This document shows, in pieces, positions 21,101 to 27,100 of a stretch of DNA of 64,000 bases. Each line of letters begins with the position of its first letter. Position 1 is the stretch's first letter. The stretch lies in NCBI RefSeq assembly GCF_016026235.1, contig NZ_CP065613.1; one strand, 5' to 3'. The DNA comes from Escherichia coli (GTDB lineage Bacteria; Pseudomonadota; Gammaproteobacteria; Enterobacterales; Enterobacteriaceae). The position numbers are program-made.

Positions 21101-24100
21101 CCCCCGAACCACGGGTGCAAAGCCATTCTGGCTGGCGGGTAGCATGTCGTTATCAGTATAGAGACGCGCGCCGCGGATTTGCGTACTGTCGAATATATCA
21201 CTCGCCGTCCACGTATCGCCGATCATAATCTGGCTTCTTAACGCAGCAATATCGCGCTGTAACCAGGTGCTGATGGAGTTGTATTCCGCACGACCATCGG
21301 TGGTGTTTAACGTGCTGTAATTGCGTAATCGCCACGGTCCAATATTTAGCCCATTGCGCAGATTGAGATAGCTTGTATTTGTCTCTTGTGATCCATAATC
21401 CGAACGGAGAGTATGCGAACCAGAAAAATCGTAGTTGATGGTGAGCGCATTAACCCCCTCATCCCAACGCGTGGGGCTTATATAATCGTAAGCCATCGCG
21501 TCCATGTAGATTTGGGGAATAGATATATTCAGCTGAAGTTTATCACTGTCCAGTTGCCAGGATGAACCTTCAATACGTGGCGCAGGATCCAGACAGACCG
21601 TTTCATCCACCCCATTGAGCGATTTCAGTGCATCAACTTTTACCCCAAAGGAGGTCAATGTCTTTTTAATGGCAACAAAACAGGCATGCAAATCAGAATC
21701 GGGATTATCCTGAACAAAGGTAACATCCTGACGTTCAAACATTTTCCCGTTAATAAAAATATCAACGCTATAGACGCCGGGAGGAATCAAGTTTGCCCGG
21801 TTAAACTGGCGAATATCTACCCCTGATTGATGGTCAATTTCCAGTAGCGCCGGATTGAACACACTGACCTCGGCCATAAGGCTTTGCGAGAAAATCAGAA
21901 ACGTCCCCGCCGTCAGCCCAACCGCAATTCTGGTCGTAACCATAATACGCCTATCCTTATGCAATGCTTACAGCGGCATTTTTATCGGTTCGCTTACTGC
22001 ACCGTAATCATTAATAAATCGCCAAATCATTTGGCTGCCCGCAGAGTTAGCAGGCAGGGGTAAAGTGAGCGTTTCAAAAGGACGGATCATATTGAGAGGC
22101 ACATCATGGCCATCCACTATGACATCCATCACGCTGATATGAATCGGGTTGGGATTCTCTGCAATTAAGTTTCGCCCTTCTCGATGCCACTTCACTTTCG
22201 GTGCGGCATCTTCGGGAATCAGACGAATGCTTGCCGGTCGCCAGAACAGTTTGATTCGCGTTTTGACAGCGATTTCCAGCGAGTTCTCTGCTTTGTTGCT
22301 TGCAGAGGGTGGAATATTTTTAATATTCAGCCAAAAAACAGACTCACGATCCTCAGGTAATGACACACCTTTGGTGTGAATAATGCGTAATACTTTTTCT
22401 TGCGCAGGTTCTAACCGCGAAACCGGAGGAATAACCGTAAATGGCGCTTTGTTTTTATCATCTTTATTAAAAGGATCCACCCATGCCTGTATGAGATAAG
22501 GGATTTTTTCTTCCTTACTAAATACAGAAATAGATTTATCTGAGTTATTACACAAGTAAACAACTCGTGTACCACCAATGACAACACCTGCATAAGTTAA
22601 TACTGGTTGACCTAAAAACAGGCTAAATATAACAGCGATAAATAATTTGTACCACATGGTTGTTTTAAAGAGCCTCATTAAACAACTTTTTCTGGACATA
22701 ACGACTCCCTAGCCAAAGCCAACTGAATAAAAAGGCCCTTGATAAATTATTTCTTATATTCGATGGTAAATTGTGAATCAGCGTTCGCCGTACCCGCCGT
22801 TACGGTCGCATTTGTTGCAACATAGCGTGCGATAAACTTCATTTCAGCAGTGCCATCAGCTTCGATAGCGGTATAGGCGGAATCGTTATAGAGTTTAACC
22901 TGAGAATTATCGGACTGGTTAAAAATACGAATACCTACGCCAGTAGCAACTATTGCAGCTCCTGTGCCAGTATAATCACCCGGATCGCTTGCAGTAATTG
23001 GTGTACCTACTTTCAGGTCACCGTCTCCGCCAGGCGCTTCAGTACCATCGAAACGAACGGCTGCCTGAGTATAGGTTGCCGGACATTTTTCCAGTTTAAT
23101 ACTAAATTGTTGTGGTGATGCCATACTTCCTACCCCGGAAAATGCACTTTTGCTGACCTTACCAAGTGGAACAGTTTGATCGGCGGTATCTGAGGTAACT
23201 TCACAAGTACTGTCGACTATTTCACCAACAAAGTGAACAACACCATCCTCTGCGAGTGCATGCCCAGCCAGCATTAAAGATGCCAGCGTGAATGCACCGC
23301 CAATAATATTACGCTTCATAGAAACTCCATTGATATGATATATCCTTTACCATGAATCATCACTTATATTAATAAGTGTATTTTTGATTCAAAGGAATAG
23401 TACACCAAAGAGACGGCTTTATCTAAAAATAATATTAATTACGCAAAAATAAAATATAAATTTATTGTTTAAATATTATTTAAACAGTAAAAAATCAAGT
23501 TTGTTATCAGACATTAATGATAATTCAGAATATATTTATATAGAAAGATAGATGAATTTATTGATGTCAGTTATAAAAAAGGGCCACCGGTCGGCAGTAA
23601 TGCCGATCAGTTAAGGATCAGTTGACCGATCCAGTGGCTGTGTAAGAATCCGGAAACGCTCACTTGTTTCCGGATTTTTTTATGCACATTGGACAGGCTC
23701 TTGATCTGGTATCCCGTTACGATTCTCTGCGTAACCCACTGACTTCTCTGGGGGATTACCTCGACCCCGAACTCATCTCTCGTTGCCTTGCCGAATCAGG
23801 TACTGTAACGCTACGCAAGCGCCGTCTTCCCCTCGAAATGATGGTCTGGTGTATTGTTGGCATGGCGCTTGAGCGTAAAGAACCTCTTCACCAGATTGTG
23901 AATCGCCTGGACATCATGCTGCCGGGCAATCGCCCCTTCGTTGCCCCCAGTGCCGTTATTCAGGCCCGCCAGCGCCTGGGAAGTGAGGCTGTCCGCCGCG
24001 TGTTCACGAAAACAGCGCAGCTCTGGCATAACGCCACGCCGCATCCGCACTGGTGCGGCCTGACCCTGCTGGCCATCGATGGTGTGTTCTGGCGCACACC

Positions 24101-27100
24101 GGATACACCAGAGAACGATGCAGCCTTCCCCCGCCAGACACATGCCGGGAACCCGGCGCTCTACCCGCAGGTCAAAATGGTCTGCCAGATGGAACTGACC
24201 AGCCATCTGCTGACGGCTGCAGCCTTCGGCACGATGAAGAACAGCGAAAATGAGCTTGCTGAGCAACTTATAGAACAAACCGGCGATAACACTCTGACGT
24301 TAATGGATAAAGGTTATTACTCACTGGGACTGTTAAATGCCTGGAGCCTGGCGGGAGAACACCGCCACTGGATGATACCTCTCAGAAAGGGAGCGCAATA
24401 TGAAGAGCTCAGAAAACTGGGTAAAGGCGATCATCTGGTGAAGCTGAAAACCAGCCCGCAGGCACGAAAAAGTGGCCGGGACTGGGAAATGAAGTGACAG
24501 CCCGCCTGCTGACCGTGACGCGCAAAGGAAAAGTCTGCCATCTGCTGACGTCGATGACGGACGCCATGCGCTTCCCCGGAGGAGAAATGGCGGATCTGTA
24601 CAGTCATCGCTGGGAAATCGAACTGGGATACAGGGAGATAAAACAGACGATGCAACTGAGCAGGCTGACGCTGAGAAGTAAAAAGCCGGAGCTTGTGGAG
24701 CAAGAGCTGTGGGGTGTCTTACTGGCTTATAATCTGGTGAGATATCAGATGATTAAAATGGCGGAACATCTGAAAGGTTACTGGCCGAATCAACTGAGTT
24801 TCTCAGAATCATGCGGAATGGTGATGAGAATGCTGATGACATTGCAGGGCGCTTCACCGGGACGTATACCGGAGCTGATGCGCGATCTTGCAAGTATGGG
24901 ACAACTTGTGAAATTACCGACGAGAAGGGGAAGGGCCTTCCCGAGAGTGGTAAAGGAGAGGCCCTGGAAATACCCCACAGCCCCGAAAAAGAGCCAGTCA
25001 GTTGCTTAACTGACTGGCATTACACCGGTCGGCAGCCCTTTTTTATCTATGATAGTGATTACTCAACCGTAACCGATTTTGCCAGGTTACGCGGCTGGTC
25101 AACGTCGGTGCCTTTGATCAGCGCGACATGGTAAGCCAGCAGCTGCAGCGGAACGGTGTAGAAGATCGGTGCAATCACCTCTTCCACATGCGGCATCTCG
25201 ATGATGTGCATGTTATCGCTACTTACAAAACCCGCATCCTGATCGGCGAAGACATACAACTGACCGCCACGTGCGCGAACTTCTTCAATGTTGGATTTCA
25301 GTTTTTCCAACAGTTCGTTGTTCGGTGCAACGACGATAACCGGCATATCCGCGTCAATCAGCGCCAGCGGGCCGTGTTTCAGCTCGCCTGCAGCGTAGGC
25401 TTCAGCGTGAATGTAAGAGATCTCTTTCAGCTTCAATGCGCCTTCCAGCGCGATTGGGTACTGATCGCCACGGCCCAGGAACAGCGCGTGATGTTTGTCA
25501 GAGAAATCTTCTGCCAGAGCTTCAATGCGTTTGTCCTGAGACAGCATCTGCTCAATACGGCTCGGCAGCGCCTGCAGACCATGCACAATGTCATGTTCAA
25601 TGGAGGCATCCAGACCTTTCAGGCGAGACAGCTTCGCCACCAGCATCAACAGCACAGTTAACTGAGTGGTGAATGCTTTAGTGGATGCCACGCCGATTTC
25701 CGTACCCGCGTTGGTCATCAGCGCCAGATCGGATTCGCGCACCAGAGAAGAACCCGGAACGTTACAGATTGCCAGCGAACCAAGGTAACCCAGCTCTTTC
25801 GACAGACGCAGGCCCGCCAGGGTATCCGCGGTTTCGCCAGACTGTGACAAGGTGATCATCAGGCTGTTACGACGCACGGCAGATTTGCGATAGCGGAATT
25901 CAGAGGCGATTTCGACGTCGCACGGAATACCTGCCAGCGATTCAAACCAGTAACGGGAAACCATACCGGAGTTATAAGAAGTACCACAGGCGAGGATCTG
26001 AATATGCTCAACCTTCGACAGCAGTTCGTCGGCGTTCGGTCCCAGCTCGCTTAAATCAACCTGACCGTGGCTGATGCGCCCGGTAAGGGTGTTTTTGATC
26101 GCGTTCGGCTGTTCGTAGATCTCTTTCTGCATGTAGTGACGGTAAATACCTTTATCGCCCGCGTCATATTGCAGATTGGATTCGATATCCTGACGTTTTA
26201 CTTCCGCGCCAGTTTTATCGAAGATGTTTACCGAACGGCGAGTAATTTCCGCAATATCGCCCTCTTCAAGGAAGATAAAGCGACGGGTCACCGGCAGCAG
26301 CGCCAGCTGGTCAGAAGCGATAAAGTTTTCGCCCATACCCAGACCAATCACCAGCGGACTACCAGAACGTGCCGCCAGCAGGGTATCCGGGTGACGGGAG
26401 TCCATGATCACTGTACCGTACGCACCACGCAGTTGCGGGATAGCACGCAGAACAGCCTCACGCAGAGTACCGCCCTGTTTCAGCTCCCAGTTCACCAGAT
26501 GGGCAATTACTTCGGTGTCTGTTTCAGAAACGAAGGTATAGCCACGCGCTTTTAACTCTTCGCGCAGCGGTTCATGGTTTTCGATGATGCCGTTATGCAC
26601 CACCACAATGTGTTCAGAAACATGCGGATGCGCATTCACTTCTGAAGGTTCACCGTGGGTCGCCCAGCGAGTATGAGCAATACCCGTACCGCCATGCAGA
26701 GGATGTTCTTCCGCTGCCTGAGCCAGCATCTGGACTTTACCGAGGCGACGCAGGCGGGTCATATGACCTTCCGCATCAACAACGGCCAGACCGGCAGAGT
26801 CATATCCGCGGTATTCCAGACGACGTAAACCTTCAAGAAGGATTTCTGCTACATCACGTTGCGCGATCGCGCCAACAATTCCACACATAGTTTTTGATTC
26901 CGATTTATATCGTTGTCGGTCAACCTGTATGCCCGTTTTTTCGGGCGCCCCGAGCCTTGTAGAGAGTGGGGTTATTTTTATAGTTACTGCTTGTGGGAGG
27001 GAGATTATGTTATCTCCTCATCCCAGATGACCGGATTACCCGGCCAGAATTACTTTTTCTTTACCGGACGACGCCAGCCTTCTTTCTGAGTCTGCGGCAC

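Follow-up and report, generated by a model that had tools for sequence, protein, structure and literature searches.

The stretch analysed here, referred to as the window, comprises 64,000 nucleotides of Escherichia coli contig NZ_CP065613.1 (assembly GCF_016026235.1) and contains a copy of the insertion sequence (IS) IS4 directly behind glmS. The intact glmS gene is followed on the same strand by lpfA-O113, the first gene of an lpf operon of ~7 kb, with pstS located beyond it (Table 1). The IS4 copy, designated copy 1, lies upstream of lpfA-O113 at a distance of 278 bp from the start codon, whereas the initial annotation had described the empty site in a glmS-pstS context; the true neighbour is lpfA-O113, and the whole lpf operon is placed between glmS and pstS. 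A second IS4 (copy 2) is found between ravA and kup. We consider it highly probable that copy 1 results from a simple transposition into the bidirectional intrinsic terminator found behind glmS where strains have the lpfA-O113 operon, and that its position reflects the target preference of IS4 itself.

Table 1. Coordinates of features around the glmS-associated IS4 and of the second IS4 copy (window positions; nt, nucleotides)
Feature	Coordinates	Strand	Remarks
lpfA-O113, long polar fimbria major subunit	22747..23319	-	Downstream of glmS
Distal half of split glmS terminator	23576..23584	-	Plus strand AAAAAGGGC; in glmS sense, descending stem GCCC and U-tract
Left copy of 13-bp target-site duplication	23585..23597		CACCGGTCGGCAG
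IS4 copy 1	23598..25022	+	1425 bp; transposase reading direction towards glmS
Left terminal inverted repeat, copy 1	23598..23615		TAATGCCGATCAGTTAAG
Promoter-like site, candidate transposase promoter	23622..23649	+	TTGACC-16-AAGAAT, extended TG; consensus match only
Strong hairpin and U7 just before transposase ATG (23682)	23644..23680	+	-32 kcal/mol, z = -6.3; overlaps promoter-like site
Truncated transposase frame, copy 1	23682..24497	+	271 aa; intact-like through residue 263, then 8 out-of-frame residues and stop
A5 run, frameshift site	24467..24471	+	Six A in copy 2 and in each complete 1426-bp IS4 compared
Out-of-frame C-terminal transposase part	24472..25009	+	End of DDE_Tnp_1 and Y-2-R-3-E-6-K motif (intact residues 307-321)
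Terminator-like hairpin in IS4 right end, met by glmS transcripts	24983..25018	-	11-bp stem GCCAGUCAGUU-AAGC-AACUGACUGGC, then UCUUUUUC; 6 G-C pairs
Right terminal inverted repeat, copy 1	25005..25022		Reverse complement TAATGCCAGTCAGTTAAG
Right copy of 13-bp target-site duplication	25023..25035		CACCGGTCGGCAG; nt 24-36 after glmS stop
Position of would-be Tn7 5-bp duplication	25034..25038		GGGCT, glmS sense, nt 21-25; from L034 and L022 junctions, agrees with PMC2918618 numbering
Proximal glmS 3' untranslated region and ascending terminator side	25036..25058	-	Sense TCACTATCATAGATAAAAAAGGG; unaltered by insertion, same as FDAARGOS_943 empty site
Predicted TnsD-binding part of attTn7 (+23..+58)	25059..25094	-	glmS stop and last 11 codons; intact, identical to K-12; from PMC2918618 and L034
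glmS	25059..26888	-	Intact, 609 aa; stop codon 25059-25061; RefSeq annotation of matching loci
IS4 copy 2	44401..45826	+	1426 bp, intact 442-aa transposase; 12-bp duplication CTCAAAGGGGGG

The 18-bp terminal inverted repeats of copy 1 match at 16/18 positions and start with TAATGCC; all IS4 copies retrieved from RefSeq show the same terminal repeats. In a direct-repeat scan, the two flanking 13-bp repeats were the sole perfect 13-mer pair around the element. Matching elements occur in thousands of E. coli genomes, where RefSeq names them “IS4-like element IS4 family transposase” or insG, and copy 1 differs from elements annotated in this way at 4-12/1426 positions (≥99% nucleotide identity). 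It thus shares its imperfect ends, its sequence and a target duplication of 11-13 bp with the E. coli IS4 (insG), the type element of the IS4 family and IS4 subgroup. While the intact copies compared are 1426 bp long with a single 442-aa transposase, copy 1 is one A short in the A-run at 24467-24471, which is the single difference between copies 1 and 2. The transposase of copy 2 contains the Pfam domains Nterm_IS4 (7.6e-33) and DDE_Tnp_1 (1e-31), as well as a Y(2)R(3)E(6)K motif at residues 307-321. The target duplication of the IS4 family has been given as about 10 bp (PMC2266710); we found 13 bp at copy 1, 12 bp at copy 2 and 11-13 bp across 15 collected IS4 sites. The initial annotation of a 1425-bp IS4 with intact inverted repeats was reproduced at all of its coordinates, including a duplication placed at about nt 24-36 past the glmS stop codon and an IS right end (25022) lying 37 bp from that codon, with 36 bp in between.

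Removal of the IS and of one duplication copy yields the empty site AAAAAAGGGC-CACCGGTCGGCAG-CCCTTTTTT (within ...TTATAAAAAAGGGCCACCGGTCGGCAGCCCTTTTTTATCTATGATAGTGATTA...), which agrees base for base with the natural empty site of E. coli FDAARGOS_943. The reconstruction made in the initial annotation therefore has an exact natural counterpart. FDAARGOS_943 is the closest complete genome, lacks both IS4 copies and shows 99.95% identity to the window over about 47 kb. The K-12 sequence was rejected as an empty-site reference: it diverges one base past the glmS stop codon (only the first base, T, is common) and has a different terminator, of a type without the A-run arm. Using 600 bp of the reconstructed lpfA-glmS empty site as query, a single contiguous match covering at least 80% of the query was obtained in 1923 of 5426 complete E. 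coli genomes.

In the sense orientation of glmS, the empty site has the sequence UAA-N20-GGGCUGCC-GACC-GGUGGCCC-UUUUUU with a run of six A (A6) ahead of the stem, corresponding to an 8-pair core stem, the loop GACC and six U (U6) at nt 21-46 past the stop. The hairpin with U6 folds at -25.3 kcal/mol compared to -11.7 ± 2.4 for shuffled sequences (z = -5.6). Based on this folding, the empty site is predicted to be a canonical bidirectional intrinsic terminator of glmS, and both the natural empty site and the fold support the earlier placement of IS4 within it. A terminator scanner did not call the empty site and, on the plus strand, gave no terminator-like hit for the hairpin in the left end of IS4 (23644-23680). 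We attribute these misses to the A-run, which may pair with the T-run and thereby consume the U-tail, and relied on folding instead.

The position of copy 1 would be explained by a general recognition of terminators consisting of an A-run, a hairpin and a T-run. The preferred target of IS4 would be a hairpin, made of a loop between the two complementary arms of a short G+C stem, with an A-run before it and a T-run behind it (roughly AAA-N(about 20)-TTT), and staggered cuts 11-13 bp apart, centred on the loop, would give rise to the 13-bp duplication. In support of this, 15 distinct IS4 empty sites were reconstructed from junctions in E. coli and related assemblies, with positions counted outward from the duplication. 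They include tynA-feaB, accA-ldcC, pdxK-crr, htpX-yebQ, zapB-rraA, rpoD-mug and yeiQ-yeiP, and furthermore ymcF-csp, a prophage site, aroA-ycaL, mdh-degQ, ravA-kup and one site inside rcdA. The left arm (-9..-5) is A in 10-14 and the right arm (+4..+8) is T in 13-15 of the 15 sites; position -2 is G in 13/15 and position +2 is C in 11/15. In the collected sites, the duplication (11-13 bp) covers the loop and the upper stem of the hairpin. The majority of annotated sites are located between convergent genes, which points to bidirectional terminators. With 20 nt from A-run to T-run, the glmS site fits this pattern. The sole other strict A-run/GC-stem/T-run match within the window is AAAAGCCAGCCTGTTTCCAGACTGGCTTTT at 28723-28752 between glmU and atpC, an unoccupied candidate target for IS4.

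Other ISs are known to insert at palindromic or structured intergenic DNA, such as IS1397 and ISKpn1 at bacterial interspersed mosaic elements (BIMEs), IS110/IS621-type elements at repetitive extragenic palindromic (REP) sequences and IS200/IS605 elements next to hairpins. Like IS4, these elements exploit recurrent intergenic structures where insertion costs little. However, they rely on other transposase chemistries and recognition modes, whereas IS4 is a DDE cut-and-paste element with a duplication of about one helical turn.

The insertion splits the glmS terminator, and the transcript of glmS would lose its own terminator. It would likely end at the terminator-like hairpin in the right end of IS4, about 20 nt inside the IS, which a scan and the centroid fold place at nt 41-66 after the glmS stop. 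According to this model, the new 3' end of the glmS mRNA would probably lie about nt 72-75 past the stop, extending the 3' untranslated region by about 27 nt. On the other side of the IS, the distal half and the left duplication copy form a 5-pair hairpin followed by CCCUUUUUU (terminator-like site, minus strand, 23597..23584), and the minus strand of 23560-23640 folds at -26.4 kcal/mol (z = -4.1). This remnant hairpin (left duplication copy and GCCC-U6) would still shield lpfA. On the same strand, the IS4 left-end sequence CCACUGGAUCGGUC (23625-23640) pairs with the neighbouring target-repeat copy GCCGACCGGUGG (23585-23597), forming a long hairpin that ends in the same U-rich stretch; this is probably a chance complementarity of this particular target. 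Transcripts reading in from the left would be stopped or occluded by the left-end hairpin and its U7.

Taken together, we tentatively propose, as somewhat more doubtful than probable, that IS4 insertion could act as a terminator-for-terminator swap: the element would split bidirectional terminators and bring an inward-facing terminator-like hairpin at each end, so that flanking transcripts would end within about 30-80 nt. If true, the transposase gene would be shielded from read-through and the insertion would be nearly neutral. This would also explain why both IS4 and Tn7 are found in the glmS terminator of successful lineages, and the terminator catalogue of a genome could be used to predict the copy number and position of IS4.

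The initial annotation had further placed IS4 in the same short interval that Tn7 uses as attTn7. In the attTn7 numbering, position 0 is the centre of the 5-bp Tn7 duplication (PMC2918618); if +23..+25 is the glmS stop codon, the Tn7 duplication is expected at nt 21-25 after the stop. Natural Tn7 junctions in lpf-type terminators of two loci, L034 and L022, confirm the duplication GGGCT at this position. In L034, glmS-TAA is followed by 25 nt ending in ...AAAAAAGGGCT and then by Tn7R (in full ...GTTGAGTAA TCACTATCATAGATAAAAAAGGGCT / TGTGGGCGGACAATAAAGTC...), with tnsA, tnsB and tnsC beyond. L022 (GCA_040188935.1, JBEAAC010000002.1) carries both elements in the order Tn7L ...CACA (...TTGTCCGCCCACA) / GGGCT-GCCGACCGGTG / IS4 / CTGCCGACCGGTG-GCCC (GCCCTTTTT) ... 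lpfA; here, the Tn7L end, GGGCT and IS4 directly abut (locus positions 2700-4400 and 5239-6747), and lpfB further on is interrupted by IS1. To the left of this junction are genes with acetyltransferase, dihydrofolate reductase (DHFR) and split phage-integrase domains, which may represent sat2, dfrA1 and intI2 of the Tn7L end, and judging from its gene content L022 is probably Shigella sonnei. For this species, Tn7/Int2 between glmS and IS4 has been described (PMC12795559), and the adjacency of IS4 and glmS is hence already on record. The IS4 near glmS in S. sonnei (PMC12795559; L022) resembles the window in the hairpin hit, in the 13-bp duplicated sequence and in its location between glmS and lpfA. 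In contrast to the window, L022 has IS4 in the opposite orientation, contains Tn7 and has an interrupted lpfB.

The would-be Tn7 duplication in the window (25034-25038) and the IS4 duplication (25023-25035) overlap by 2 bp (25034-25035), and the IS4 duplication is centred at nt 30 compared to about nt 23 for Tn7. The claim of a shared interval therefore holds with regard to the geometry, including the overlap with natural Tn7 duplications, but not with regard to the insertion point, which differs between the two elements. IS4 adjoins and slightly overlaps attTn7 without occupying it, and the mechanisms of IS4 and Tn7 are unrelated. In the case of Tn7, TnsD binds the conserved coding end of glmS, and the element inserts at nt 21-25 past the stop; K-12, FDAARGOS_943 and the window do not differ over the final 60 nt of glmS. 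Since the insertion leaves nt 1-36 past the stop intact and the TnsD site is identical to that of K-12, attTn7 is not blocked and should still be usable. The presence of Tn7 between glmS and such an IS4 in S. sonnei (PMC12795559; L022) likewise indicates that a neighbouring IS4 does not disable attTn7. Tn7 at attTn7 (TnsABC+D) and IS4 here are alike in that both sit in the glmS terminator and are harmless to glmS. However, Tn7 is placed by TnsD at the end of glmS whatever the sequence at the insertion point, with a 5-bp duplication and in one orientation, whereas IS4 reads the terminator palindrome, duplicates 13 bp and can enter in both orientations. That both elements arrive at one hairpin is due solely to the chance location of the glmS terminator at this spot.

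Among the complete E. coli genomes, IS4 is found at the same nucleotide and in the same orientation as in the window in four (E10, STEC17-190, 21AR0303 and RMDEC465), and in the opposite orientation with a 12-bp duplication in two (CUVM3 and CPww7). L022, with the opposite orientation and a 13-bp duplication, represents a further event. It could be argued that all of these copies descend from one old insertion that was spread by homologous recombination, in which case the site would be no recurrent target; the 13-bp duplication and the 45-bp flanks are indeed identical in the window, E10 and STEC17-190. We regard this as extremely improbable and rejected a single ancestral insertion, based on the opposite orientations in CUVM3, CPww7 and L022 and on two of the four same-orientation genomes (loci L003 and L004), whose different terminator alleles, with duplications CGCCGGTCGGCAG and CGCCCGTCGGCAG, show single-nucleotide polymorphisms in both repeat copies. 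The occupants further differ in their duplication alleles (CACC.., CGCCGG.. and CGCCCG..) and duplication lengths (12 or 13 bp), in their IS variants (4-12 positions) and in their lpf flanks (11-16%). Because of these differences and of the additional event in L022, the glmS terminator appears to have been hit independently at least five times and in both orientations. An origin of the position in attTn7 itself, either through the same glmS-end signal as used by Tn7 or through survival in a “safe harbour” rather than through a general preference for terminators, would be suggested by the overlap of the duplications and the co-occurrence of both elements at the site, and an insertion behind an essential gene must be neutral to persist. 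This explanation is nevertheless very unlikely: IS4 occupies hairpins of this kind at 12 or more unrelated loci without glmS nearby (e.g. those from tynA-feaB to yeiQ-yeiP listed above), and it occurs at the glmS site in both orientations while Tn7 is strictly orientation-specific (PMC2918618), which led us to reject a shared mechanism. Moreover, in the complete E. coli genomes the matches linking IS4 with the end of glmS were confined to the lpf-type terminator, and the K-12-type terminator is without the A-run arm. Several points weigh against transposition into the glmS terminator through a target preference of IS4. Occupancy is low, as only six complete E. coli genomes carry IS4 compared to 1923 with the contiguous site, and the site is permissive rather than strongly hot. 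Two of the 15 collected sites (inside rcdA and ravA-kup) are not clean terminators, and the preference is hence not absolute. The order of IS4 and Tn7 insertion in L022 is unreadable from the junctions, either order leading to the same sequence, and the replacement terminator has an interrupted U-tract, with the 102-nt junction RNA not being unusually stable (z = -1.6). Finally, the AAA-N20-TTT consensus, which reportedly goes back to Mayaux et al. in 1984, was not found in the literature searched, and the pattern was re-derived from the 15 sites.

The loss of one A in copy 1 relative to copy 2, as reported in the initial annotation, was confirmed in the window (A5 compared to A6), and the transposase frame is split by it after residue 263 of 442. 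In IS4-family transposases, the catalytic E of the DDE triad is assigned to the YREK motif. If A5 is real, the encoded 271-aa protein would lack this part, and copy 1 would be mobile only with the transposase of copy 2, a possible source in trans. The further claim that copy 1 is unable to make its own transposase stands as far as the frame is broken by A5, but it depends on a single homopolymer base, and a near-identical assembly has A6. This independent public assembly (L036; GCA_900449985.1, UGFA01000002.1) equals window positions 14543..27942 at all 13,401 aligned positions but this one and encodes an intact 442-aa open reading frame. A homopolymer miscall in the assembly of the window, with copy 1 being a normal autonomous 1426-bp IS4, thus comes close to an even chance in our assessment. 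Every complete 1426-bp IS4 copy compared has A6, including all six other occupants in complete genomes, and the indels between the window and FDAARGOS_943 over ~47 kb are all ±1 in runs of at least six (G7/G6 at 45833-45839 and A7/A6 in rbsD at 48011-48017). The exact 271-aa product is also found at other IS4 loci in four assemblies in which the IS varies between 1422 and 1425 bp and many genes are fragmented, from which we conclude that the A-run is readily under-called. On the other hand, the rest of the window is clean, an alignment of about 40 kb being free of indels, real frameshifts, too, most commonly arise by loss of one base from an A6 run, the genome has at least one genuine inactivating substitution (lpfC E467*, see below), and the error could instead be in the other, long-read assembly. 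Defective IS copies should not be called on one homopolymer base.

At the start of rbsD (48008-48017), the A-run after the ATG has 7 A compared to 6 in FDAARGOS_943 and in K-12, leading to a frameshift after 3 codons. The truncated 126-aa RbsD product was detected in 124 collection blocks, many of them from fragmented assemblies; the sister assembly L036 did not appear among the blocks listed. The A7 in rbsD would thus stem from repeated slippage at this site or from a repeated sequencing error.

Overall, copy 1 is an unremarkable case of IS4 inserting into one of its typical sites and represents already known biology; public assemblies contain the arrangement, which has been described in print for S. 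sonnei (PMC12795559). As a textbook insertion sequence, its importance beyond annotation is small. The locus is a clean natural example of two unrelated elements, IS4 and Tn7, reaching one hairpin by different recognition routes with duplications overlapping by 2 bp. Users of mini-Tn7 working with lpfA-O113-type E. coli or Shigella may encounter IS4 just distal to attTn7, and polymerase chain reaction (PCR) products on the pstS or lpfA side would be about 1.4 kb larger.

Copy 2 (44389-45838 including its duplication) is located in the divergent ravA-kup promoter region rather than in a terminator; the A-run and T-run arms are present all the same. A single contiguous match covering at least 80% of the ravA-IS4-kup stretch was found in 35 complete E. 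coli genomes, and IS4 was present in 12/12 of those listed, which makes ravA-kup a second recurrent IS4 site. In the right flank of copy 2 (45827-45839), the target repeat is followed by an extra G, so that CTCAAAGGGGGGG has 7 G compared to 6 G in the left copy and in the empty site of FDAARGOS_943.

The usher gene lpfC-O113 (19421..21943, minus strand) contains a nonsense substitution at 20543-20545, where position 20545 is A instead of the C found in FDAARGOS_943 and Glu467 is changed to a stop codon. The lpf operon downstream of the IS is therefore probably non-functional anyway. The truncated 466-aa LpfC product is encoded on 18 public contigs and marks the lineage that shares the IS4 insertion of the window; three of these loci were retrieved, namely L036, which carries IS4, and two short-read contigs ending 28 bp inside the left end of the IS. 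In FDAARGOS_943 (L025), IS2 is inserted in the last lpf fimbrial gene and in bglH (locus positions 31089-32317 and 43793-45021), whereas the window has uninterrupted open reading frames of 357 and 538 aa at about 18337-19410 and 7171-8787. Considering these IS2 and IS4 differences, the window and FDAARGOS_943 differ mainly by recent IS movements.

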